Numbered from the stretch's first letter, positions 7,552-59,125 are shown. The stretch: DNA of 59,125 nt from a virus (IMGVR_UViG_3300036861_000222:1-59125); one strand, 5' to 3'. The notes: generated by a model from the letters alone, not told the origin. Made by a program: numbers and translations.

Positions 7552-7622
7552 GCCTTCGTAGCCTAGTGGCAAGGCAACCGTCTCCAAAGCGATTGACAGA
7601 GGTTCGATTCCTCTCGGGGGTG
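7552..7622 (+). tRNA. tRNA-Trp(CCA)
   Basis: Cloverleaf, loop CT-CCA-AA, TTCGATT T-loop. Confidence 0.85.
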
Positions 7623-7733
7623 CTGAGTGTGTGAGTCCGTACACTTAGAAGGCCAAGCGCTTAACCAGCGTAACGGACTAACCAGCCTAGGTCGCTCCTA
7701 GGACTGGCAAAGGCTCCTGGTGGTTCAGGGGTA

Positions 7734-7806
7734 AACGCGGTAGCTCAATGGTAGAGCAGGGCCCCTAACCCGGGCCCGGATCTGGGTTCGAGTCCCAGTC
7801 GCGTTA
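7734..7806 (+). tRNA. Atypical tRNA, 6-bp anticodon stem, loop CT-AAC-CC (nominal Val-AAC)
   Basis: Canonical acceptor, D and T arms; non-standard anticodon arm. Confidence 0.65.
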
Positions 7807-7920
7807 CGGAAGCGATACCGGCTCCGAGGACGCCCACAGGTAGTCCTCTGACTGGACCTTGAGAGCGTCACTCTCTCAGGGTGTGCGTGACAGGTGTGAT
7901 GGCCTGGGTACGCACTGCGA

Positions 7921-7992
7921 CGCGGGATAGCTTAAAGGTAGAGCACCTGGCTCATAACCAGGATGATGCGGGTTCGACTCCCGCTCCCGCTA
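7921..7992 (+). tRNA. tRNA-Met(CAT), initiator-like C1:U72 mismatch
   Basis: Cloverleaf, loop CT-CAT-AA. Confidence 0.88.
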
Positions 7993-8050
7993 CGAGAACG
8001 GTTCGGAAGGTTCATCGGGGGATGGTCACCTGAATACCGAGCCGTTCGCT

Positions 8051-8133
8051 GGAAAGTCTGAGACTTGGTGTCTCGCCCCGGTTGCTACCTGGGGACATCC
8101 TTCGGGATGACGGTTCGATCCCGTGACTTTCCG
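8051..8133 (+). tRNA. tRNA-Ser(GCT)
   Basis: Long variable arm with TTCG loop, anticodon GCT, G73. Confidence 0.8.
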
Positions 8134-8136
8134 CAT

Positions 8137-8222
8137 GGAGGGTAGCGCGCGTTGGTGCGCAAGCGGTCTTGAAAACCGTGCCAGGGTGAAACCTGAGGGT
8201 TCAACTCCTTTACCCTCCGCCA
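8137..8222 (+). tRNA. tRNA-Ser(TGA)
   Basis: Long variable arm, loop CT-TGA-AA, encoded CCA. Confidence 0.88.
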
Positions 8223-8338
8223 ACTACATAGGCGTTATTCGAGATTCCGCACACCTCCGAATAACGCGCGTGGCTCCCCCAGGACGCCACGTGTACCGGG
8301 TGGGTCTTTCATCTCCACACTTCCCACCCGGTACGAAC

Positions 8339-8418
8339 GGGAGTCCGATGCAGGTGCATCACCCAGCCTGTAAAGCTGGTGTCCATGGACAAGGTTGGTT
8401 CGATACCAACGGCTCCCA
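8339..8418 (+). tRNA. tRNA-Tyr(GTA)
   Basis: Loop CT-GTA-AA, extended variable arm. Confidence 0.82.
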
Positions 8419-8419
8419 C

Positions 8420-8493
8420 GCCGCGTTAGAGTAACGGTTATCTCACCAGGTTCTCAACCTCGGAGACTACGGGTTCGAATCCCGTACGCGGTA
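8420..8493 (+). tRNA. tRNA-Glu(CTC)
   Basis: Loop TT-CTC-AA, cloverleaf. Confidence 0.85.
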
Positions 8494-8502
8494 CGTGAAT
8501 AA

Positions 8503-8575
8503 TCGGTTGTGGTGCAACTGGAAGCACGCTAGGCTTTGGTCCTAGAGGTTCCTGGTTCGAACCCAGGCAGCCGAG
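8503..8575 (+). tRNA. tRNA-Gln(TTG)
   Basis: U1-A72, loop CT-TTG-GT, G73. Confidence 0.85.
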
Positions 8576-8580
8576 CTTGA

Positions 8581-8652
8581 TCCCTGGTAGTTCAGTGGAA
8601 GAACGCCGAGCTGTTAACTCGGATGTCGTTGGTTCGAATCCAGCCCGGGGAG
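8581..8652 (+). tRNA. tRNA-Asn(GTT)
   Basis: Loop CT-GTT-AA. Confidence 0.92.
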
Positions 8653-8671
8653 CGTCACAAGTGAACATTGA

Positions 8672-8745
8672 TGCTTGCTAGCACAATTGGTAGTTGCGTC
8701 CGGCTCTGAACCGGAAGGTTCCTGGTTCGAATCCAGGGTGAGCAG
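8672..8745 (+). tRNA. tRNA-Gln(CTG)
   Basis: Loop CT-CTG-AA. Confidence 0.9.
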
Positions 8746-8826
8746 CGTTGGGGCTATGTGAACGTAAGACTGTCGCAGAGAACGGGCATAGACGTATCTC
8801 ATAAAACGCAGGCACCCCATTGATAA

Positions 8827-8899
8827 GGTCCGTTAGAGTAGTGGTTATCTCACCTGGCTTTCATCCAGGAGAAGACCGGTTCGATCCCGGTACGGACTA
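8827..8899 (+). tRNA. tRNA-Glu(TTC)
   Basis: Loop CT-TTC-AT. Confidence 0.9.
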
Positions 8900-8915
8900 C
8901 GCAAGACAACTTCAT

Positions 8916-8988
8916 GCTTCATTGGCGCAGGGGTTAGCGCAACGGCTTGTCACGCCGTAGGTCGCGGGTTCAAGTCCCGTATGGAGCG
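8916..8988 (+). tRNA. tRNA-Asp(GTC)
   Basis: Loop TT-GTC-AC. Confidence 0.92.
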
Positions 8989-9029
8989 CAAGGCTTCCAA
9001 GTCTTCTAGTCGGTCGCTTGGAAGCCAGA

Positions 9030-9101
9030 CGGGATATGGCCCAGTGGTAAGGCGCTTGCTTTGGGAGCAAGACAGCGGAGGTTCGATTCCTCCTATCCCG
9101 A
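9030..9101 (+). tRNA. tRNA-Pro(TGG)
   Basis: C1-G72, loop TT-TGG-GA. Confidence 0.92.
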
Positions 9102-9103
9102 CT

Positions 9104-9178
9104 GAGTGTGAAGCACGAAGGCAGTGCGCCCGGTTGTGGTCCGGGATTCTGCGGGTTCGAGTCCCGTCACACTCCCCA
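9104..9178 (+). tRNA. tRNA-His(GTG)
   Basis: Loop TT-GTG-GT, C73, encoded CCA. Confidence 0.88.
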
Positions 9179-9187
9179 ACTTCATAA

Positions 9188-9260
9188 GCTCCGGTAGCCC
9201 AACGGTAGAGGCATCAGGTTTAGGTTCTGATCAGTGGGGGTTCGAATCCCTCTCGGAGTA
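9188..9260 (+). tRNA. tRNA-Leu(TAG), short variable loop
   Basis: Loop TT-TAG-GT, Leu-type D arm, 5-nt variable loop. Confidence 0.88.
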
Positions 9261-9261
9261 C

Positions 9262-9334
9262 ACTCGCCTAGCCCAACGGTAGAGGCGGCGCTCTCAAAAG
9301 GCGTTCAGTCCTGGTTCGAATCCAGGGGCGAGTA
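9262..9334 (+). tRNA. tRNA-Leu(CAA), short variable loop
   Basis: Loop CT-CAA-AA. Confidence 0.88.
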
Positions 9335-9402
9335 CGTTGTTACCGCAACATATATCCTAAGAAACCACAAACGTGACATAATGCCAGTTATGTCACCCAT
9401 AT

Positions 9403-9475
9403 GCCCTGATAGCTCAACGGATAGAGCGACAGCCTACGAAGCTGGTAGTTGGAGGTTCGAATCCTTCTCAGGGCA
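9403..9475 (+). tRNA. tRNA-Arg(ACG)
   Basis: Loop CT-ACG-AA. Confidence 0.92.
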
Positions 9476-9556
9476 CGAAGGCATCTTTCAAGTTCGGGTA
9501 CGGAACAGTCAAACAAGGCTGTACGTTAGGGATGGGCAGACGAAGCCCGAACACAT

Positions 9557-9627
9557 GCGGTAGTAGCTTAGTGGCAAAGCGTCTGTCTTCCAAACAGATA
9601 ACGGGAGTTCGATTCTCCCCTACCGTT
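9557..9627 (+). tRNA. tRNA-Gly(TCC)
   Basis: Loop CT-TCC-AA, U73. Confidence 0.9.
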
Positions 9628-9696
9628 CGGGGAGTGATGGGTTAGGACTCCGCATCAAAACTTCACCTCGGTTCCCGCGCAAGCCGGAACCGCCAT

Positions 9697-9770
9697 GCCC
9701 TTATAGCTCAGTAGGTTAGAGCAGTCGCCTTGTAAGCGAACGGTCCGGGGTTCGAATCCTCGTTGGGGCT
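9697..9770 (+). tRNA. tRNA-Thr(TGT)
   Basis: Loop CT-TGT-AA. Confidence 0.9.
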
Positions 9771-9842
9771 CAGCAACATGGCAAAGTGGGTTGTCGTGTT
9801 GAGTGGCGTCTCAAGCCTGGGACTTCAGGCTTGAGATGTTAC

Positions 9843-9914
9843 GTCTTGCTAGCTCAGTTGGCAGAGCACAGGATTGAAACCCCTGGTGGCGTGGTTCGAT
9901 CCCACGGCAGGACA
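9843..9914 (+). tRNA. tRNA-Phe(GAA)
   Basis: Loop TT-GAA-AC. Confidence 0.85.
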
Positions 9915-9929
9915 CGTTACAACTACATT

Positions 9930-10002
9930 GGGTCATTAGCTCAGTAGGTAGAGCTCTGTTCTCTTAAATCAGATGTCGTAGGTTCGATCCCTACATGACC
10001 CA
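9930..10002 (+). tRNA. tRNA-Lys(CTT)
   Basis: Loop CT-CTT-AA. Confidence 0.9.
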
Positions 10003-10006
10003 CTTT

Positions 10007-10081
10007 GCGCCGTTAGCTCAGTTTGGTCAGAGCTGTGTACTTTTAATACACAGGGCGAAGGTTCGAATCCTTCACGGCGTA
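10007..10081 (+). tRNA. tRNA-Lys(TTT)
   Basis: Loop CT-TTT-AA. Confidence 0.92.
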
Positions 10082-10082
10082 C

Positions 10083-10155
10083 ACCCTGTTAGCTCAGTGG
10101 ATAGAGCGGGAGGTTTCTACCCTCCGCGCCCCGGGTTCGAATCCTGGACAGGGTA
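10083..10155 (+). tRNA. tRNA-Arg(TCT)
   Basis: Loop TT-TCT-AC. Confidence 0.9.
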
Positions 10156-10156
10156 C

Positions 10157-10229
10157 AACGCGGTAGCTCAGTGGTTAGAGCGGCATCCTGATACGATGCG
10201 GGTCCAGGGTTCAAATCCCTGCCGCGTTA
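10157..10229 (+). tRNA. tRNA-Ile(GAT)
   Basis: Loop CT-GAT-AC. Confidence 0.92.
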
Positions 10230-10230
10230 C

Positions 10231-10303
10231 GCACCATTAGCTCAGCGGAACGAGCGGCTGTCTTACAAACAGCGGGTCGGGGGTTCAACTCCCTCATGGT
10301 GTA
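10231..10303 (+). tRNA. tRNA-Val(TAC)
   Basis: Loop CT-TAC-AA. Confidence 0.92.
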
Positions 10304-10383
10304 CGGATGGATTGATCACCATCAAATCCTAGATAACCGCTGCGTCCTGGCCTAGGCACCCTTCGAGGTGTAAGGATGCGTTA

Positions 10384-10456
10384 GGGCTGTTAGCTCCAAT
10401 GGTAGAGCATCTGTTTTGCATACAGAGGGTTGTCGGTTCGAATCCGTCACGGTCCA
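10384..10456 (+). tRNA. tRNA-Ala(TGC)
   Basis: G3:U70, loop TT-TGC-AT. Confidence 0.92.
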
Positions 10457-10572
10457 CGGTGAGAGTTCCGGGTGTTCTAGACTCCCCCGGAACCACCCGC
10501 TATAGCCATTCTCCAAACCTCCAGTACGGCCGTACGTTCACGAGGAGCGGATGACCCTGCCTTTAGCGTCAA

Positions 10573-10646
10573 GGCGTGATGTCCGAGTGGTCAGGTAACG
10601 GCCTGCAAAGCCGTTCACGTGGGTTCGAATCCCGCTCACGCTTCCA
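10573..10646 (+). tRNA. tRNA-Cys(GCA)
   Basis: Loop CT-GCA-AA, U73, encoded CCA. Confidence 0.9.
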
Positions 10647-10764
10647 ACCTCATATGAGCGCGCATGAGCGCGCACCGCTCAGTGAGCGCGCATCCTCCGG
10701 GTTGCGCGCTCATTTTGGTGTCTGATAGAATTCGTCAACGACACGACGAACGAAGGACGAAACG

Positions 10765-12021
10765 ATGAATGACTTTGCATCAACACCCGAGGGAGCGCTC
10801 ATCATCGCGTGCGCGTTCGGAGCGCTCATGATCGCACTCATCCTGTGGCGCACCGCAGGAGGCGCGCGTGCGCGCGCATCTGAGAAAGCGCGCGCATGGG
10901 CTGAACTGAAGCGTCCCGAGTGGGAGGAGCGCGCATCGCGCAAACGAGAAGCGCGCGCATCTGGAGCGCGCGCAGACGCGCGCTTGCGCATTGCGCTCCT
11001 GAGCGCGGTTGCGCTCGTTGCGATCGCAGCCACCAACCTGAGCGCTCACGCTACGATCAACGCGATTCGGCGCGCAGGGCTGGACAGCGTTGACGCTGCT
11101 ATCTCCGTGGTGATCGTCTTTGAAGCGTTCCTGATGATCCTCGGAGCACTGTCCTGGTGGCACATGAACCGAGGCACGGGCCCCAACTGGTATGAGGTGG
11201 GCGTCTGGTCTATGGCCGCGCTCATGGGAATTGTTGCCTGGTGGGGTGGACACAACCCCATCTTCGCGTTGTGGCCCCTCTTGGCGGCTATCGCCTGGCA
11301 CGTGGTTATCACCTTCGGACGAGAGCACAAGCAGTCAGCGCTCATCACCTGGTGGCGCATGAAGCGTGGCAAGGCCACCTCGCAGGACGCAAACGTGGTG
11401 CTCACTGAGCGTCTGATCACGGCCATTGTTGATCACGGTTACGCGGCCAACGAAGGAGCGCGCGCACTGCGCGCATTCCATGAGCGCGCATTCAACCGCG
11501 CATGGGCGCGAGCGGATGCGCTCGGCATCCTCACCCCCGAAGTGCGCGCGCGCATCCAGACGCGCATTGCCGCTCGCTACGCCGGAGCGCGCGCGCTCGC
11601 CCCTGAGAAGGTTGAGCACATGAACCCGTGGAATGAGCGCGCAATGAGCGCTCCCTCTCGGAGTGCGCGCACGGTGCGCCCGGTGAGCGCTCCTCCCGCT
11701 CCCGCTGTCGAGGTGAGCGCGCATGGAGAAGTGAGCGCGCATGACGAGCGCGCATCTGAGGATGAGCGCGCAACGGAGGTTGCCGAGACGATCACCGTTC
11801 CTACGTACACTGAGAGCGCCTATTCCAAGGGTGAGCTGGTGGAAGCTATTGAGAAGTTCTTTGCCAGCAAGAACATGGTGGCGAAGGAATGGGCCAAGAC
11901 GTTCGTTGAAACCAACGGTGTCCTTCCCAACGGTGATGACCTTGCGCGGTTCACCCGGAAGACGGCAGCCAACTGCCGGAAGTGGATGGCTCCGGTCCGT
12001 AAGGAACTGGGTCTCAGCTAA
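10765..12021 (+). CDS. SpdB/DUF2637-like multi-pass membrane protein with C-terminal HTH
   Basis: About 5 hydrophobic segments, Pro/Ala linker, C-terminal LPNGDDLARFTRKTAANCRKW HTH-like; own promoter (TGaTAGAAT) and RBS; upstream of TraB-like gene. Confidence 0.6.
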   Translation: MNDFASTPEGALIIACAFGALMIALILWRTAGGARARASEKARAWAELKRPEWEERASRKREARASGARADARLRIALLSAVALVAIAATNLSAHATINAIRRAGLDSVDAAISVVIVFEAFLMILGALSWWHMNRGTGPNWYEVGVWSMAALMGIVAWWGGHNPIFALWPLLAAIAWHVVITFGREHKQSALITWWRMKRGKATSQDANVVLTERLITAIVDHGYAANEGARALRAFHERAFNRAWARADALGILTPEVRARIQTRIAARYAGARALAPEKVEHMNPWNERAMSAPSRSARTVRPVSAPPAPAVEVSAHGEVSAHDERASEDERATEVAETITVPTYTESAYSKGELVEAIEKFFASKNMVAKEWAKTFVETNGVLPNGDDLARFTRKTAANCRKWMAPVRKELGLS

Positions 12022-12029
12022 GCTCAGGA

Positions 12030-12227
12030 GGCTGGCACACCCCCGGATGGGGGTGTGCCAGTCCTGTTCCCAGGTCTCCAGATCTGGCACACCTACAAAC
12101 CACGGTTGACCTGCGGAAATACTGATTTGGCACGGCTGACACGCTGTGCCAGCGTCTGCGAGGGCGTAGCATTTCCGCAGGTCACAGCCATCCACCAACT
12201 GACAATCTGGCATGGCGTGCCGTGCCG
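12030..12227. repeat. Intergenic TGGCAC/GTGCCA repeats, hairpin and 14-bp inverted repeat
   Basis: Hairpin 12030-12063; TGACCTGCGGAAAT (12107-12120) and ATTTCCGCAGGTCA (12171-12184). Confidence 0.75.
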
Positions 12228-12280
12228 GAATGGTGTATGATTAAATACCTAGTCAGAGATGAAACGATAGGAAGATACAC

Positions 12281-12718
12281 ATGATTGAGACTGCCATCGA
12301 CCAGACAGCCGGAGGGCTCGCGGTTGCGTTCTTCCTCTGGGCCTGGTGGACAAACCGGAGGAGCGACAGCAGGGCTGCGGGTATTTCAGCTGTCATCCTT
12401 GCCATCGTGGGATCGATGCTGTTCTATGCTGCTCCGTGGTCGCTGTGGTTCGCGAACCTTGTCGCCTCCATTCTCCAGATGTTCGGAGATTTCCCGGTAC
12501 ACCCGGTTATGACCATTGCCTGTCTGGCACTGTTGGGGGGTGTGGTCTTCGACCTCATCAATGACCCGACGTACAACGTCGGCGCTGTATGGGCGCTTAT
12601 CTTCGCTCCGATCATGGCGCGCGGCGCGGCTGGCCTTGCAGGTTCGTTCTTGGAGCAGCTGTTCGGCGGCGCTTCGATGGCGTTCCTCGACGCTGTGAAG
12701 CACCTCTTCGGAGCCTGA
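12281..12718 (+). CDS. Small multi-pass membrane protein (Spd-like by context)
   Basis: 4 hydrophobic segments; stop 1 nt before the TraB-like start. Confidence 0.75.
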   Translation: MIETAIDQTAGGLAVAFFLWAWWTNRRSDSRAAGISAVILAIVGSMLFYAAPWSLWFANLVASILQMFGDFPVHPVMTIACLALLGGVVFDLINDPTYNVGAVWALIFAPIMARGAAGLAGSFLEQLFGGASMAFLDAVKHLFGA

Positions 12719-12719
12719 C

Positions 12720-14567
12720 ATGAGCGCTCATGAGGAGATCGAAAACGATGAGCGCGCACTGTCGCGCTATGCGCGCGCGTCTTGGGATCTCGCTTCCCAA
12801 GGCGCGCGCCGCCATGTTGAACGTGCGCGCGAGTGGGTGCGCGCTGAAGGCCTAGAGGATCACATGCGCGCTCAAGAGGTCAAGCAGATGAGCGCGCGCA
12901 ATGAGCGCGCATCGAAGCAGCGAGCGCGCATGTCCAAGCGAGCGCGCGCGAGCGCGCATCCGCCAGCACCTGTGCGCGCCATGAGCGATCTTGAGCTGAA
13001 GTCGCGCGCATTCGGTACGCGCGCACTGCGCTCACTCGGAGCACTCAGCGTGCCGTGTGCGGTAGCGGCCTATCCGGTCTGGAGCCTCGCGCAGGGTGAC
13101 CCCGTGCCGCTTCTGCTGTGGCCTTCCGCCTACGGGTACCTGGTGTGGGACGGATGGATGTTCCTGAACAGGGAAGAGAAACGAGCTGAGGGCGATGAAC
13201 GAACTGAGCCGCTTCCTGTCGAGAACGGGAAAGTACCCGTCTTCCGTCCGCAGCGTCTGACAGAACTGCCTCCCACTGCGGAGGAAGTGCAGATCATCCA
13301 CCGAATCGACACATGGGCGGAGCGCGCGGAGGAGCGGAAGCTGCAGGACGTGGTTCCGCAGCACCCTGTGATCGATGAATCAGGGCTCCTCATCCCCATG
13401 GATCTGACGGGGCAGTGGACACGGGAAAAGCTCGGAGGCCAGGTCAGCCAGATTCGCGCGCTCCTGGCGGTACCGGATGGTATTCAGACGCAGGTGAAGC
13501 CGGGAGGTACCGCCGACCGCGCGGTGTTGCGGGTGCGGACACGTATCCGTGACCTCGATCTGGCTTGGAACCCTGAGCGCAAGGGGTTGGGGCTTGACGC
13601 TGATACGGCCGAGATCATCACTATTGACATCACTGACCGCATCCTCGTTGCGGGAATGTCGGGTGCTGGTAAGTCGGTAGTGCTGCGGACGCTCATGGCG
13701 GAAGTCCTCGGCCTCATCCACACGGTTGTGGTCATCATCGATCTGAAAGTCGAGGGCGCGTTGTGGGCGCATTGCGCTCGTGTCGAGTCGAAGAAAGGAG
13801 GTATTGAAGGCCTGGTATCCGAGCTGATCGCTGAGATGGAGGAACGGGAAGACATCATGCGTGAGCGCGGGATGGACCTGTGGGAACCTACCGCTGAGCG
13901 ACCGCGCATCGTGGTAGTGGTTGATGAGGGAGCCGAGCTGATCGGGGGTGTTCCTGACTGTATCGACAGGATTCGAACCCTCGCGGTGCGGGCCCGAAGC
14001 TCCCAGATGCCTGTCTGGTGGGCTACGCAGAAGCCGACAGTCACTGGAGCAGGGCGTGGACTCGACACCATGATCTCCGCGCAGCTGACCACGATCATCT
14101 GTTTGGCGGTTACCTCCCCTCAGGAGTCGCGCACCGTACTTGGGGAGGACGCTACCGCTAACGGTTGGGATGCTGACGAGCTGTTGAAAGGTGGCTGGGC
14201 ACTCGTCCGTACACAGGGGGAGCGGAAGGTTCCGAACCCGGCCAGGGTCTGGTTCATGACGAAAGAGGATGTGAAGGCGATCCCTCCGCGTGAGGCGTGG
14301 AGGCGAAAGAAGGCAGGCGTTGAGGCAGTGCCACACATCCTGGCGGTAGCACTGAAGTTGTCCGAAGGGCTGCAGGGTGTTTCCACAGCGCAACTGGTGT
14401 CAGTCCTGGGGTTCACGGATACTGAGGTACACACGCGACTCCGCGCGCTGGGCGCCTCACCCGAACCGAACGCCTTCGCCATGGGCAATGGAGACAAAGC
14501 GCGTGGTTATCGACGCTCTGTGCTTGAATCTGCACTAATGACTGTGAGGGGTCAGTATGAGGCTTAA
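12720..14567 (+). CDS. traB: TraB-like FtsK/SpoIIIE dsDNA translocase
   Basis: Two N-terminal TM segments, Walker A GMSGAGKS, IIDLK, Walker B VVVVDE, ARS finger, WATQKP, C-terminal wHTH ending RGYRR. Confidence 0.8.
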   Translation: MSAHEEIENDERALSRYARASWDLASQGARRHVERAREWVRAEGLEDHMRAQEVKQMSARNERASKQRARMSKRARASAHPPAPVRAMSDLELKSRAFGTRALRSLGALSVPCAVAAYPVWSLAQGDPVPLLLWPSAYGYLVWDGWMFLNREEKRAEGDERTEPLPVENGKVPVFRPQRLTELPPTAEEVQIIHRIDTWAERAEERKLQDVVPQHPVIDESGLLIPMDLTGQWTREKLGGQVSQIRALLAVPDGIQTQVKPGGTADRAVLRVRTRIRDLDLAWNPERKGLGLDADTAEIITIDITDRILVAGMSGAGKSVVLRTLMAEVLGLIHTVVVIIDLKVEGALWAHCARVESKKGGIEGLVSELIAEMEEREDIMRERGMDLWEPTAERPRIVVVVDEGAELIGGVPDCIDRIRTLAVRARSSQMPVWWATQKPTVTGAGRGLDTMISAQLTTIICLAVTSPQESRTVLGEDATANGWDADELLKGGWALVRTQGERKVPNPARVWFMTKEDVKAIPPREAWRRKKAGVEAVPHILAVALKLSEGLQGVSTAQLVSVLGFTDTEVHTRLRALGASPEPNAFAMGNGDKARGYRRSVLESALMTVRGQYEA

Positions 14568-14793
14568 GTGGGTCAGAGATGACACGAGTATGTACACGTA
14601 CCGTGCTGAGTCGATTCGGTATCGATTCATCATGATCGTACCTCCGCGCGCGCGGACGACACTCTGGGTACAGCACACCACCGACGACTGGGGCAGCAAC
14701 CCGATCGATCAACGGTTGTGCCGCTCACGGCGTTACGCTGAGCATGTGGCGCAGCGGTTCGAGAACCAAGACAACCCGCGTCGCCTGAGATGA
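14557..14793 (+). CDS. Hypothetical protein
   Basis: GAGG RBS, overlaps the TraB-like stop. Confidence 0.6.
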   Translation: MRLKWVRDDTSMYTYRAESIRYRFIMIVPPRARTTLWVQHTTDDWGSNPIDQRLCRSRRYAEHVAQRFENQDNPRRLR

Positions 14794-14797
14794 CACC

Positions 14798-15511
14798 GTG
14801 AACTGGTATCGACTCCGCGTGGAGATCGCAGCATGGGCAATGCGTTCGTGCATTTCGGTGCTGACCTTCCTGGTAATCGTGCGTGTGCTGTTCATCTCAA
14901 GAGAAGGCATGCGATCCTACGCGATCTCACTACGCTTCCTTGCTGAAAACGAGTGGGTGTTGTACGCCGGGCTCCCGTTGGGAATCGCGATCCTATGGCT
15001 GTGCTACTGGCGGGTGTTCCGTGTTTACCGAGGAAGACGTCGTTATAAAGAAAACCCAGTTCGCCTAGGAGGTCATGTGCGCAGAACTGAACAACCCGCA
15101 GCCCCTCGCACTAGTGAGGGGCTGCGTCCCCATTGGGAGGAAAAGGCGGCGTGTCGAGACTACAACAACAAGTATCAAGACCCTTGGGACGCTGACCCCA
15201 GCGTGGGTCATGTCAACTCGGAGGCGCACAGTTTCTGTGGCAGATGCCCGGTGAAGCGTGAGTGCCTACTAGCAGGCCTGCGAAGCGACGCACTCAACAA
15301 CGGCGTTGCTTTTGGTATCTGGGGAGATACCGCACCCAAGCATCGCCGAGCCATGATCCGAGTTCGCTACCGTCAAGCGTGCCCTGTTTGTAAGGGGAAG
15401 CTCGTGATCACAGCCAACGGTGAGGAGTGGCAGGCATGTGCCTCATGTGGGATCACCTGGCGCTGTAAGAAGCGTGTCGTCTTCACGCACGGTACACAGC
15501 AACCCAGCTGA
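14798..15511 (+). CDS. whiB: WhiB-family regulator with N-terminal TM region and C-terminal zinc ribbon (possible internal start at 15077)
   Basis: W...AAC, C..CPV...CL, GIWG; CPVC...CASC; AGGAGG before GTG 15077. Confidence 0.82.
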   Translation: MNWYRLRVEIAAWAMRSCISVLTFLVIVRVLFISREGMRSYAISLRFLAENEWVLYAGLPLGIAILWLCYWRVFRVYRGRRRYKENPVRLGGHVRRTEQPAAPRTSEGLRPHWEEKAACRDYNNKYQDPWDADPSVGHVNSEAHSFCGRCPVKRECLLAGLRSDALNNGVAFGIWGDTAPKHRRAMIRVRYRQACPVCKGKLVITANGEEWQACASCGITWRCKKRVVFTHGTQQPS

Positions 15512-26938: not shown

Positions 26939-27781
26939 CTACCGCTGATTATCGACTGTTGGACGACGCGGAGGTTCGTCGTAGCTCATGCCTACCCGCT
27001 TGGGCACACGTAGTGCAGTCGCCTGGCGGTTCGTGGCAACGAACGGCATACGGTTATATGTGGCAGGTGATCCCAATTCCAGGCTTGCGTCCGCCTGTGG
27101 CCTTGCAGGGAACCGTCGCGAGGCGACACGCGTAGACTCCCCCATGTTGATGAAGCCCTTATTCCAGGCACGACCCAGCGCTGAGGCATCTTCTCCGATG
27201 AACTCGTGCGCCTTCCTTCCCTGTCCATGCCCGACCAGACTCTCACCATCGCGGTGATCCACCAGGGACGGCCATGGGCACCAGGTGTTAAGCCGGAACA
27301 GGTCGATGGCGCAGCGACCTACCCTCCGGTCATACTGTGGGTATTGCTGCTTGTCGCACCACTTGATCAGCTCGTTGATGATCTCCGTAGGGAGGATGAT
27401 CGCAACACCCCAGTTGAGTGAGGGCATTTTGATCCAAGACGCATCTAGGTCGCGAGCCTGCATTACCGCGCGCTCTACCTTACCCGCAGCGGGGCGCCGC
27501 GTGCCAATATAAGGCGACACGACACCTGTCTCCGGGAGGAAGTCAAGCGCGGATTCGAGTCCGGCGATCAGGTCGCGACACACCAACGCATCGTCCTGAA
27601 CAACCATGCCCCACTCCGCGCCCTGGTCAATCGCCTGCCACGCGCGACGGCCAGTGTCCCAGCGGTTGTTTTTACGATCCCAGATAACGTCTGATTTCTC
27701 CAGTCCCAGCTGCTCCAGGAGGTGGGGGATGAACGGTGCGCGTTTCTGGTGTGCCATGATCTTCACGGAGAGCTGTGTCAT
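26939..27781 (-). CDS. Glycosyltransferase (GT-A-like)
   Basis: IMAH..R, VVQDDA, PSLVDH motifs. Confidence 0.7.
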   Translation of the reverse strand: MTQLSVKIMAHQKRAPFIPHLLEQLGLEKSDVIWDRKNNRWDTGRRAWQAIDQGAEWGMVVQDDALVCRDLIAGLESALDFLPETGVVSPYIGTRRPAAGKVERAVMQARDLDASWIKMPSLNWGVAIILPTEIINELIKWCDKQQYPQYDRRVGRCAIDLFRLNTWCPWPSLVDHRDGESLVGHGQGRKAHEFIGEDASALGRAWNKGFINMGESTRVASRRFPARPQADASLELGSPATYNRMPFVATNRQATALRVPKRVGMSYDEPPRRPTVDNQR

Positions 27782-28362
27782 GCTTGCGCCTTCTCATAGA
27801 CAAAGAAGGACGCGAGCCCTTCTCGGAGTGGTTGTTCGGTACGTTTCAGTTCCCAGCCGCCGAACATCCGCGCGATGTCGGGCGTGAACTCACGTCGGAA
27901 GACGTGACGGGCTGTGAGTCCACCAGCGTAGTTAGTGGAGTAGATCATCACGAAGCGTTCGGCGCTTTCGAAGAGCTGCTCTAGATACGTGAAGTAGTCG
28001 TTATCGTCGGGAAGATGGAAGAGCACATCCAGGCTTAGGGAAAGCTCATTCGGAACCTCAACAATTTCAGGGATGTTCAGCACAAACTCGTGTTGAGGGA
28101 ACTTAGCACGCATACGCTCAACAATGGTGAGTGATACATCTACACCAAGATAGTCAGCTCCATGTAGGTCAACAAGATCCAAAACCTGTCCGTCTCCACA
28201 ACCCCAATCGATCACGCTTTCAACGCTGTGGTCACGAATGAAGCCAGAGACGTACTTCGCCTTGTAAGAGCCTTCGTCGCCTTCAGAACCTGCGCCGGAG
28301 GTTCGCCCCTCGCGGTAGCGCCGATCCCAGTACCCGGCGGGAGTGTATTGGAGTTGCTTCAC
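27778..28362 (-). CDS. Class I SAM-dependent methyltransferase
   Basis: YW..RY...SG.GS, VIDWGCGDG, YLGVDVS. Confidence 0.88.
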   Translation of the reverse strand: MKQLQYTPAGYWDRRYREGRTSGAGSEGDEGSYKAKYVSGFIRDHSVESVIDWGCGDGQVLDLVDLHGADYLGVDVSLTIVERMRAKFPQHEFVLNIPEIVEVPNELSLSLDVLFHLPDDNDYFTYLEQLFESAERFVMIYSTNYAGGLTARHVFRREFTPDIARMFGGWELKRTEQPLREGLASFFVYEKAQA

Positions 28363-28994
28363 TTCGTCACCCCCGGAACCCGTTGCCCGATGACATAGCC
28401 AGGACTGCCCACTGCTAGCCGATCAGTAACCTTCCGCAGCCCCGTCAACTCCTCCGACTGGACCAGCGCGCTGACAGCTGCGAGTACCCCCGGGTTGTGC
28501 TCCTGATCGTAGTCATCAAAGATGATCACGGCGTCATCTGCGAGGTGCGGACGCCACGCCCGGAAGTCAGCTAGCACCGCTTCGAAGTGGTGGTCACCAT
28601 CAATGTAGAGCAGGCCGACTGGCTTACCACATAGCCCCTCATGCCACATCTCCGCTGCCAGGGTGGTCAGGGAGCGTACCGGAGTCACCTGGTCCCGTAC
28701 GTCTGCTTTCTCCAGTTGCCGCAGGAACTCTTGATAGGTGGCGGAAGGTAGCCGTTCCAACACACGGTTTCGCCATGAAGAGACTTCCTCGGACCAGGCG
28801 TCTACCGCGAAGACAGGCGCTCCGAGTCCTGTCTTCGCTCCTCGCGCCAGGTACGCCGTGGACTTCCCGCGATACGAGCCAAGCTCCACTACCGCACGTT
28901 CAGCGGCAACCTGCGATGCTGCCTTATGCAGCACCTCCCCAACCTCCGCAGAAATCAATCCGTCAAGCTCGGATAGCTCATCAAGTCCTAGCAT
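28359..28994 (-). CDS. Class I SAM methyltransferase (Methyltransf_24-like)
   Basis: VELGSYRGKST, LYIDGDH, IFDDY; GGAGG RBS before ATG 28994. Confidence 0.88.
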   Translation of the reverse strand: MLGLDELSELDGLISAEVGEVLHKAASQVAAERAVVELGSYRGKSTAYLARGAKTGLGAPVFAVDAWSEEVSSWRNRVLERLPSATYQEFLRQLEKADVRDQVTPVRSLTTLAAEMWHEGLCGKPVGLLYIDGDHHFEAVLADFRAWRPHLADDAVIIFDDYDQEHNPGVLAAVSALVQSEELTGLRKVTDRLAVGSPGYVIGQRVPGVTK

Positions 28995-29640
28995 TTCGCG
29001 CCTCCATAACGGATTGGGTGTGGTGCCATTGGTGTACTGCGATGACATCATTATCAAATGATACGGGAATCGTCCCCGTTTTGACATGTGAATAGCTGAA
29101 TGGGAACCATAGCCGTGAAGGATCCGTATGTCCTCCGTACTTCCGCCAAATAGGAGTGAGGTAGCGTGGACCTGAGAGGTGGTTCGGACGCTTACCGCGT
29201 AGACGGGTGACGTTCGCTGGGAGCCCACGAACCAACTCACGGAATATCGAGTGACGAGGCACAGCTCCCAGATAGGTGTTTCCTACCCAGTTGTGATCTT
29301 CCATTGCGGCAAAGGTGTCGAGTCCTCGGAGTGCGTTGTCAATGCGGTGCAGGGGGTTGGTATCCACGTCAGCGTAAAAGCCACCGTAGTTATACAGCAG
29401 CTCATAGCGAAGGATGTCTGATTGGAACTGTTCAACCGCGTCACCGGGCACCAGCTTAGACGCCTGATCGAATAGTGCCTGATTGTGCAACATAGGAAGA
29501 TTCGATTCGTCCCACAACGTGACCTCCCAGTCTGGGTGCATGTACTCCCAGGTGGTTAGGTTTTTTCGTAGGTGATTCGGCATTGGTTTCCCAAGCCAGA
29601 TGAAGTGCATCTTTCTTGGAATCTTCAGATCTTCTGTCAT
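28981..29640 (-). CDS. GT32/OCH1-like DXD glycosyltransferase
   Basis: IPR.MHFIWLG, HPDWE..LW, SDILRY.LLY.YGG.YADVD. Confidence 0.9.
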   Translation of the reverse strand: MTEDLKIPRKMHFIWLGKPMPNHLRKNLTTWEYMHPDWEVTLWDESNLPMLHNQALFDQASKLVPGDAVEQFQSDILRYELLYNYGGFYADVDTNPLHRIDNALRGLDTFAAMEDHNWVGNTYLGAVPRHSIFRELVRGLPANVTRLRGKRPNHLSGPRYLTPIWRKYGGHTDPSRLWFPFSYSHVKTGTIPVSFDNDVIAVHQWHHTQSVMEARNART

Positions 29641-58750: not shown

Positions 58751-59125
58751 ATGCTCAAAGACGTATCCCTGCACTTGGTGGAAGACTACCAAGACGTTAC
58801 CGCCTTCATGGAGTGGCTGGGTTCCACCACTGCGAACCGCATCGGATTCGACACTGAAGGCGAAGGACTCAACACCTTCACTGACAAGGTGCGGCTCATC
58901 CAGTTCGGGGACCGTGACCACGGCTGGGCGATTCCTGTTGACCGCTGGTGCGGCCTCGCAATGGAGGCAGTTGACCGTATCTCGGAGCGAGGCGGCCGGT
59001 TCGTCGCGCATAACGCCCGGTATGACGTTGCGATGCTCCGCAAGCACGGGATTCACTTCCCTACACACCTCGTTGACGACACCATGATGTTGAGCCACGT
59101 CGCCAATCCCGCTGTTTCAGTGGGG
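58751..59125 (+). CDS. polA: Family A DNA polymerase, 5' part (3'-5' exonuclease domain)
   Basis: MLKDVSLHLV...GFDTE (ExoI)...RLIQFG...HNARYD; in frame with ORF 35-1561 across the join. Confidence 0.92.
   Translation, partial: MLKDVSLHLVEDYQDVTAFMEWLGSTTANRIGFDTEGEGLNTFTDKVRLIQFGDRDHGWAIPVDRWCGLAMEAVDRISERGGRFVAHNARYDVAMLRKHGIHFPTHLVDDTMMLSHVANPAVSVG

Follow-up and report, generated by a model that had tools for sequence, protein, structure and literature searches.

The cis-acting transfer loci (clt) of Streptomyces plasmids, as described in the cited parts of two studies, are direct 7–9-bp repeats read by the DNA pump TraB (PMC4447253, PMC3583192). According to the same parts, they are compact and essentially non-coding, with 4–9 repeats in about 50–175 bp: the clt of pJV1 has nine 9-bp repeats, that of pIJ101 extends over ~54 bp, and that of pWTY27 consists of four 7-bp repeats in 175 bp, reaching 16 bp into traA (PMC3583192, PMC4447253). 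The window studied here is a single viral contig of 59,125 bases (IMGVR_UViG_3300036861_000222), analysed over its whole length, in which a field of short GC-rich words spans 2.4 kb of a DNA-pump module that is predicted to be TraB-like. An earlier note on this DNA had taken the module for transfer genes and the words for loading sites of TraB or of an SpdB-like helix-turn-helix (HTH) protein. The field proved to be a dense array of about 34 sites, largely exclusive to this region, conserved across a phage clade and under selection at the nucleic-acid level, and its layout departs from that of the known clt loci.

A field of GC-rich words in coding and non-coding DNA

TGAGCGC stands at 16 places in 10600–13100 and at 8 elsewhere in the 59,125 bases, and its complement GCGCTCA at 9 places inside and 9 outside, where the earlier note had counted roughly 20 copies by eye; most of its copy positions were exact, and 10664, 11683, 11713 and 12903 were each off by one (10665, 11684, 11714 and 12902). 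Longer words are exclusive to the field, namely GAGCGCGCA (14/14 copies, all on the plus strand), TGAGCGCGC (11/11) and ATGAGCGCGCAT (3/3), and GCGCGC has 51 of its 78 copies in the field region. The degenerate 10-mer quasi-palindrome TG[AC]GCGC[GT]CA occurs within 10650–13040 in all 15 copies. Its 8-bp core, G[AC]GCGC[GT]C, has 41 of 49 copies there, which merge into 34 separate sites, the density being 17.2/kb in the field and 0.14/kb elsewhere. An unbiased k-mer scan returned the field words, together with the tRNA T-arm, as the top 8- and 9-mers of the genome, and GCGC outside the field region (6.6/kb) is near the composition-based estimate of ~7/kb.

The consensus of the sites is (A/G)T-GAGCGCGC-A-T, and the corresponding 12-mer ATGAGCGCGCAT is a 10-of-12 quasi-palindrome of which ATGAGCGCTCAT and TGCGCGCGCA are perfectly palindromic variants. 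The asymmetric form is strongly oriented, with 19 copies of GAGCGCGC and 3 of GCGCGCTC, and the bases flanking the defining 8-mer are informative (T at −1 in 11/19 sites, A at +1 in 14/19). The helical phasing (vector strength 0.27 at 10 bp and 0.19 at 10.5 bp) derives from 85 non-independent distances and was not relied upon.

Thirty of the 34 sites lie in coding DNA and four in non-coding DNA, with a spacing of 10–19 bp in sub-clusters. The clusters number four and not three as described earlier, namely an intergenic one and three coding patches. This intergenic head (10655–10716, plus strand) directly follows tRNA-Cys, and the field thus starts in non-coding DNA, as had been proposed. Two of its four copies are in tandem (10655–10664 and 10665–10674), and a forward copy (10683–10692) and an inverted copy (10703–10712) form a hairpin followed by TTTT at 10713–10716, which is terminator-like and lies 3′ of the tRNA array. 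The RNA fold of the head reached −41.6 kcal/mol (z −3.95), and none of 200 shuffles was as stable. Patch A (10792–11049) falls in the segment of ORF418, the first open reading frame (ORF) of the module, between predicted membrane helices 1 and 2; patch B (11456–11775, densest at 11634–11772) covers the predicted cytosolic helices and disordered linker of the same protein, the linker having the highest word density; and patch C (12720–13035) encodes the Arg/Ala-rich N-terminus of the pump, ahead of a hydrophobic segment, all three being on the plus strand. The perfect palindrome that had been seen on the TraB-like start codon is ATGAGCGCTCAT at 12720–12731, which covers the ATG of the pump one base past the stop codon of the preceding ORF. 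Pairs of GC words also give terminator-like hairpins with T-rich runs on the minus strand (10951–10973 and 12751–12768), and the region holds 5 terminator-like sites compared with 1.6 ± 1.3 in shuffles.

The control for selection consisted of 1000 synonymous-codon shuffles of the three ORFs, with each gene's own codon pool kept. GAGCGCGCA was observed 11 times compared with 1.25 ± 1.05 in the shuffles (maximum 5), and the core 39 times compared with 12.5 ± 3.5 (maximum 24); 0/1000 shuffles reached either count, so that the check named beforehand, enrichment over a codon-shuffled background, came out clearly positive. GCGCGCA is used in all three reading frames, with 16, 4 and 3 cases in frames 2, 0 and 1 of the window and 126, 73 and 73 in 16 relatives, and GAGCGCGC is translated as ERA (8 cases), GAR/RAR (5) and (V/M/A)SAH or MSAR (4). 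Codon choice in the patches is extreme: Arg is encoded by CGC in 38 of 46 codons (83%), compared with 30% of 682 codons in other genes and 23% of the 57 that these three ORFs have outside the patches. Ala-Arg is written GCGCGC in 15 of 18 patch cases, whereas among the 68 such pairs of other genes GCGCGC is outside the six commonest codon pairs (4–8 cases each), and Arg-Ala is written CGCGCA in 15/27 patch cases and 8/65 elsewhere. Third positions of conserved four-fold codons across 17 lineages are less variable in the patches (0.66–0.70 bits) than in the membrane core (0.93 bits; Mann–Whitney p = 0.003, uncorrected for relatedness). Moreover, many orthologous Arg codons are CGC in 15–17 of the 17 lineages, in proteins only 53–71% identical.

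Because the words exceed the shuffles, occupy several frames, impose this codon choice and recur in non-coding DNA, the field is under selection at the nucleic-acid level and not only as protein, which upholds the view of the earlier note that selection acts on the DNA. The companion proposal that the repeats force an Ala/Arg/Glu/Ser bias on the proteins is half shown: the patches have 22% A, 17% R and 11% E compared with 10%, 6% and 6% elsewhere, but charged Arg/Glu/Ala-rich segments are also found in the analogous membrane-HTH proteins of Streptomyces elements. The Arg/Ala-rich segments are fairly conserved as protein too, and it is not fully separable which of the two, DNA or protein, drives the other.

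Related loci were taken from viral and metagenome contigs. For ORF418, 146 clusters of related proteins were found, of which the 120 listed are 60–71% identical, the largest contigs being ~57–63 kb. Neither megablast of 10600–14600 against the phage collection nor tblastn of ORF418 returned close phage relatives. Module synteny is kept across relatives, the array is tied to the translocase module in all of them, and it is present in every related locus examined at 53–71% protein identity. In a first batch of 17 non-redundant loci, GCGC reaches 29–56/kb in the same patches of every locus and exceeds 44/kb in 16, compared with ~7–9/kb in the flanks of the four loci where these were counted, and the density holds likewise in a set of 30 non-redundant loci. 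Pooled over the first batch, the top words, GCGCGCGCA(T/C) and TGAGCGCGCA, are 50–600-fold enriched over the flanks with a plus-strand bias of ~2:1. Of the 41 core matches in G001, a complete relative of 60.9 kb, 27 fall within a stretch of 2.3 kb.

Three flavours of the word were distinguished: GCGCGCGC(A) in most lineages, GAGCGCGC(A) in the window and a few others, and GAGCGCTC in the L006 lineage. The last arose via synonymous changes such as AGC GCG CAT to AGC GCT CAC, and the stem of the upstream hairpin of L006 changed together with its word. The layout of the head is common to L011, L015, L024, L027 and L006, with the stem in each phage's own flavour; another subclade carries an unrelated hairpin at this position, with no intergenic word copies.

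The pump module, its spacer and the phage genome

ORF418 (10765–12021, plus strand) encodes a membrane-anchored protein with an HTH-like tail and is SpdB-like by position and architecture only. Its AlphaFold2 (AF2) model has helices at residues 8–185, which are read from the model as membrane-spanning, Arg/Ala-rich cytosolic helices at 192–286, a disordered stretch at 282–349, and a four-helix C-terminal domain at 355–415 with a predicted local distance difference test score (pLDDT) of ~92. No Pfam or PHROG family was found for ORF418, and 33 relatives likewise had no Pfam match; a fold search with the whole model gave nothing below E 0.5, its only matches, to LexA-N and sigma region 4, being weak, short and HTH-like. 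A putative promoter of the ORF418 operon is TAGAAT at 10726–10731 (plus strand), an extended −10-like hexamer with TGA before it. TTGCGC at 10702–10707 stands 18 nt upstream and overlaps the inverted copy of the head, TAnnnT is conserved at the −10-like place in relatives, and a consensus promoter scan did not call the TAGAAT element. ORF145 (12281–12718, plus strand) encodes a small hydrophobic protein that is conserved in synteny and has no family in Pfam or PHROG.

The third ORF (12720–14567, plus strand) encodes an FtsK/SpoIIIE-type translocase of 615 aa. The protein, which has an FtsK/SpoIIIE motor domain, matched PF01580 (1.3e-8), phrog_17958 (2.5e-56) and the FtsK structure 2iuu in the PDB (9.5e-14). 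Among plasmid proteins it is closest to Tra proteins of small Streptomyces plasmids, with 29–37% identity over aa 186–585, and its counterpart on the 8,830-bp S. lividans plasmid NC_001387.1, which we take to be pIJ101, is 35.7% identical; its nearest cellular relatives, at 31–40% identity, come mostly from Streptomyces and from other actinomycetes, among which mycelial genera are frequent. An alignment of its relatives showed a conserved hydrophobic stretch at about aa 105–150. The last ~80 residues (encoded at ~14328–14543; core pLDDT ~84 in AF2) are modelled as a winged helix with the order helix-strand-helix-helix-hairpin, and among the Foldseek matches listed for this C-terminus nearly all were winged-helix proteins (MarR, Rex, ArsR, DnaD-N) with weak E values of 0.02–0.2, FtsK gamma not being among them. 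As modelled, the 615-aa protein has a TraB-like architecture, with an FtsK motor and a C-terminal winged helix. A homologue 57% identical to the pump was found on a 2.3-kb contig (L036) filed under an Eggerthellaceae metagenome-assembled genome from goat jejunum, and this contig is probably a piece of phage DNA that was binned into a bacterial genome.

A second repeat family occupies the conserved 259-bp spacer between ORF418 and ORF145 (12022–12280). [CT]GGCAC[AG], in direct and inverted copies, occurs 7 times in the spacer and 38 times in the other 58.8 kb; across relatives there are 7–10 copies at conserved positions in 16/16 loci (32/kb compared with 0.9/kb). The spacer also contains a hairpin (12032–12061), a large inverted repeat (12107–12123 and 12168–12184) and a TATAAT-type −10 element, TATGAT, at 12236–12241. 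In the spacers of L010, L012 and L015 a GC-word hairpin, AGAGCGCGC...GGCGCGCATTTT (at ~1375–1420 in L010), takes the place of the right arm of this inverted repeat. Since the [CT]GGCAC[AG] cluster is compact, non-coding, conserved in position and beside the pump operon, it is, by analogy with the plasmids, more probably than the GC field the candidate clt, or an operator of the pump operon. One spacer word, GGCACACC, is one base off the pJV1 clt word CGCACACC, which is a resemblance and not evidence of homology.

The first 127 bases of the record (1–127) equal its last 127 (58999–59125), and it opens inside the DNA polymerase gene. The record is accordingly read as a circular assembly, the 127 bp being an assembly overlap of a circular or permuted genome whose physical ends are undefined by sequence. 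PHROG matches on the plus strand of the left part comprise DNA polymerase, helicase, exonuclease, a Sak4-like annealase and single-stranded DNA-binding protein; those on the minus strand comprise portal, major head protein, head-tail adaptor, major tail protein, tape measure, tail proteins, lysin and large terminase at 16–41 kb and primase near 53–56 kb. Of the 34 + 40 ORFs searched with PHROGs and the 28 searched with Pfam, none was recognised as an integrase, repressor, ParB, Rep or relaxase. The replicon is a complete tailed phage with a plasmid-like DNA-pump module, a soil actinobacterial phage of lytic type, and not the conjugative element implied when its genes were called transfer genes. 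A set of 26 tRNA genes (7552–10646) covering most amino acids lies immediately 5′ of the module, whose order after the last tRNA, tRNA-Cys, is ORF418, the 259-bp spacer, ORF145, the 615-aa translocase, a 78-aa ORF (14557–14793) downstream of the pump gene and a gene for a WhiB-like protein (14798–15511). Amid the tail and head genes, the minus strand at 26939–29240 carries a glycosyltransferase-like ORF and two methyltransferase-like ORFs. Methylation or restriction of GCGC was considered as a cause of the field and rejected, the two methyltransferase-like ORFs matching Methyltransf_24/25-type domains and not C5 DNA methyltransferases.

Candidate readers and rival explanations

Arrays of another word were found in Streptomyces plasmids and integrated elements. 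In pJV1 (NC_001759.1), the gene of a 371-aa membrane protein that combines a charged coil and a Pro/Ala linker with an HTH tail contains 9 copies of CGTGAGC (1092–1568), which use two frames and are without exception on the plus strand, compared with 2.2 ± 1.3 in shuffles (0/2000 reach 9). Of the 10 copies of the clt word of this plasmid as given in the cited part of the paper, CCGCACA[CG][CG] (PMC3583192), 9 are intergenic and separate the pump gene from the spd genes. Because pJV1 carries a different word for each, coding-embedded arrays and clt are distinct where the clt is known, and in this family the embedded word goes with the tail of the membrane protein. Nine Streptomyces chromosomal loci have CGTGAAC 6–12 times in the equivalent gene, and one locus has CGTGAGC 10 times. 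In the four loci measured, codon usage is raised for CGT, and for GAA in the three CGTGAAC loci; the linker peptides track the word, with VNT accompanying GTGAAC and VS[AT] accompanying GTGAGC. The pump winged helices of these elements are of other types, yet the elements have in common the word CGTGA[AG]C and, in the HTH tails of their membrane proteins, the motif GWSxGWV. A Nocardiopsis element carries CCGGGACG in the upstream gene and in the N-terminus of the pump. The Streptomyces chromosomal elements with 6–12 CGTGAAC or CGTGAGC words in the equivalent gene, which resemble actinomycete integrative and conjugative elements, are L054 (1892–2392), L061 (1656–2240), L044, L045, L056–L058, L064, L069 and L073, and L061 additionally holds Prim-Pol, DUF3631 and a PycTM protein. 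Two intergenic clusters, each ~2.6 kb downstream of a pump gene, look like iterons or clt in sequence: CTGCGTCA in L054 (8015–8216; 8 forward, 3 reverse) and CCGCTACC in L070 (7913–8120; 8 forward, 5 reverse). Searches of the TraB, clt, SpdB2 and phage literature found no published description of such phage arrays, of the embedded word of pJV1 or of the CGTGA[AG]C arrays in the Streptomyces chromosomal elements.

The most likely reading of the GC field, held at rather less than even confidence, is an array at which a DNA-binding protein of the pump module docks. A cis-acting array of ~34 sites, kept by selection on nucleic acid and placed in DNA that encodes partly disordered segments, outside the membrane, of two membrane proteins of the translocation module, would form a dense docking row for a sequence-reading protein of that module, and docking would hold this region of the phage chromosome at a membrane complex of ORF418, ORF145 and the TraB-like pump. 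Following the Streptomyces analogy, the first candidate reader would be the HTH tail of ORF418 and the second the winged helix of the pump, while the pump's own loading site or operator would more probably be the separate [CT]GGCAC[AG] cluster of the spacer. Docking by an HTH domain is plausible but unproven.

Several observations weigh against this docking reading. Within the clade the word flavour follows the recognition-helix class of the pump winged helix and not the tail class of ORF418: GAGCGCGC/(GAGCGCGC+GCGCGCGC) is 0.22–0.38 in 17 loci of one class and 0.41–0.60 in 9 of the other, and the split persists within shared ORF418 tail classes, which are shuffled among lineages. Confidence in the ORF418 tail as the reader is thereby lowered. 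As support for the pump as reader the association is weak, because the pump gene is physically linked to the array and about three changes on the tree account for it; in the motor-domain tree the larger winged-helix class is a single clade (99/99), and all four classes need three changes. The co-variation of repeats with the recognition helix that the earlier note had proposed to check is therefore clear in raw counts and reduces to these few changes on the tree. Its other suggestion, that the sites serve an SpdB-like HTH, survives as the leading candidate by analogy, with mixed evidence within the clade and with ORF418 not demonstrably a homologue of SpdB or DUF2637, an hhalign comparison with Streptomyces DUF2637-type proteins giving a probability of 0.4% and no detectable homology. 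The pJV1 analogy itself is one of architecture and synteny only. In addition, no comparable array was seen at the more distant FtsK-bearing loci of phage YDN12 and viral contigs L110 and L111, YDN12 being a BG-cluster Streptomyces phage whose FtsK is 33.5% identical to the window pump.

The words are also GC-rich and largely self-complementary, so they may have a structural role in RNA or DNA, and such a role is the strongest non-protein rival, if an unlikely one. The words would act through mRNA structure or pausing that throttles toxic membrane proteins, or through Z-DNA- or cruciform-prone DNA. The self-complementary GCGCGC cores, the terminator-like hairpin formed by the upstream copies, the minus-strand hairpins of motif pairs and the RNA fold of patch B, which is better than shuffles (z −2.41) where the membrane-core control is not (z +0.24), all speak for it. 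So do the commonest 10-mers of most relatives, which are perfect purine-pyrimidine alternations such as GCGCGCGCAC or ATGCGCGCGC; however, the GA break of the window word and the L006 word GAGCGCTC interrupt this alternation and the array is still present. The 19:3 strand bias of the asymmetric form leaves few full-length pairing partners, Rfam at 10300–13300 returned only two tRNAs and no other family at E 0.1, and the Streptomyces word CGTGA[AG]C is neither self-complementary nor GC-extreme and keeps a single orientation. The informative flanks, the orientation bias and the synonymous word swap of the L006 lineage argue for a sequence-specific site rather than a structure. The words might instead be a neutral by-product of Arg/Ala-rich, low-complexity coding DNA expanded by slippage or gene conversion. 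The window does carry an 18-bp local duplication relative to its relatives (the GEVSAH insert, 11714–11749), charged low-complexity segments are typical of the analogous proteins, and much of the Arg/Ala-rich protein sequence is itself conserved. Yet the presence of the words in three frames and in non-coding DNA, the fixation of CGC at orthologous Arg codons of diverged proteins, a patch codon usage sharply unlike the rest of the same genes and counts beyond shuffles that retain each gene's codon pool make a neutral origin very improbable.

The loading-site interpretation of the earlier note would make the field a giant clt, on which the pump winged helix loads to translocate phage DNA. It draws on the TraB-like pump with its modelled C-terminal winged helix, on the direct 7–9-bp repeats that TraB reads in the clt loci described in the cited parts (PMC4447253, PMC3583192), on the clt-like spacing of the sub-clusters and the 19:3 orientation, and on the flavour that tracks the pump class. 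Still, 34 sites over 2.4 kb, 30 of them coding, far exceed the 4–9 repeats in 50–175 bp of the loci described there (PMC3583192), the clt word of pJV1 differs from its embedded word, the compact, position-conserved spacer cluster with the clt-like word GGCACACC is the better fit, and the flavour association comes down to about three changes on the tree, all of which leaves the proposal doubtful. Other cis functions, that is, an origin with intragenic iterons, a packaging site, a Chi-like protective cluster or sites for a host factor, are rather improbable. The undefined genome ends leave room for them, and the lambda origin in gene O is an array of short oriented words inside a gene. Against them, the array is ~27 kb from the terminase gene and in no replication-initiator gene, it stays with the translocase module in all relatives, and analogous arrays occupy the equivalent gene of plasmids and integrated elements with separate Rep regions.

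A wider and speculative proposal, itself doubtful, is that the phage clade carries a full plasmid-style kit for the transfer of double-stranded DNA (pump, clt-like spacer, membrane partners and docking array), which would move replicating genomes between hyphal compartments, into neighbouring cells or into spores without virions, and that embedded arrays, found also in pJV1 and Streptomyces integrated elements, form a second and so far undescribed cis element that is general to the DNA-spread systems of actinomycetes. In the cited part of Thoma et al. (2015), a role of phage SpdB2 homologues in the spread of phage DNA is raised as speculation only (PMC4447253). If the docking reading is true, the field would be among the densest known DNA signals overprinted on coding sequence, shaping two proteins clade-wide, and the cis elements of TraB-type systems would fall into two classes, the loading site of the pump and a docking array in the gene of its partner. 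The second class would be visible even in the classic plasmid pJV1 and hence testable in a tractable system. It would also bear on the purpose of FtsK/TraB-like pumps in actinophages.

Comparison with known systems

The FtsK orienting polar sequences (KOPS) and the SpoIIIE recognition sequences (SRS) are oriented 8-bp words read by the winged helix of an FtsK-type pump, and they are distributed chromosome-wide with a skew towards dif. Unlike them, the field has no 10-mers and only 8 of 49 cores outside 10650–13040, and its words keep the same orientation on both sides of the spacer.

The CGTGA[AG]C arrays of Streptomyces resemble the field in that they lie in a membrane-HTH gene (of DUF2637 type in Streptomyces) beside the pump, with one dominant orientation, at least two frames and odd synonymous codons, and that the peptides of the disordered linker follow the word. 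They differ in having 6–12 copies compared with ~34, a word that is not self-complementary and host proteins with no detectable homology to ORF418. In addition, pJV1, L054 and L061 have no patch in the N-terminal coding region of the pump, bar single copies at the traB start, unlike the window.

With the clt loci of pJV1, pWTY27, pSVH1 and pIJ101, as described in the cited parts, the field shares element-specific direct repeats of 7–9 bp beside a TraB-type pump gene (PMC3583192, PMC4447253). It departs from them in extent, with 30/34 sites coding over 2.4 kb, whereas clt is compact and essentially non-coding in the part cited (PMC3583192).

The nearest published case, as far as the cited part goes, is the sps site and its protein SpdA2 (PMC4170104). 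Like the field, sps of pIJ101 spdA2 consists of short GC-rich palindromes or quasi-palindromes inside the coding sequence of a spread-module gene; it imposes an SRDD/E peptide as the field imposes ERA, SAH and ARA, and one sps copy of pSVH1 overlaps a start codon, as ATGAGCGCTCAT does in the window (PMC4170104). The sps described there comprises 2–3 copies of a 12-bp palindrome in the gene of a small soluble protein, and its binding by SpdA2 was observed by electrophoretic mobility shift assay (PMC4170104). No SpdA-like protein was recognised among the ORFs of the window scanned with PHROG and Pfam. The field, in contrast to sps, is a phage array of ~34 sites over 2.4 kb that runs through three frames, two membrane-protein genes and non-coding DNA.

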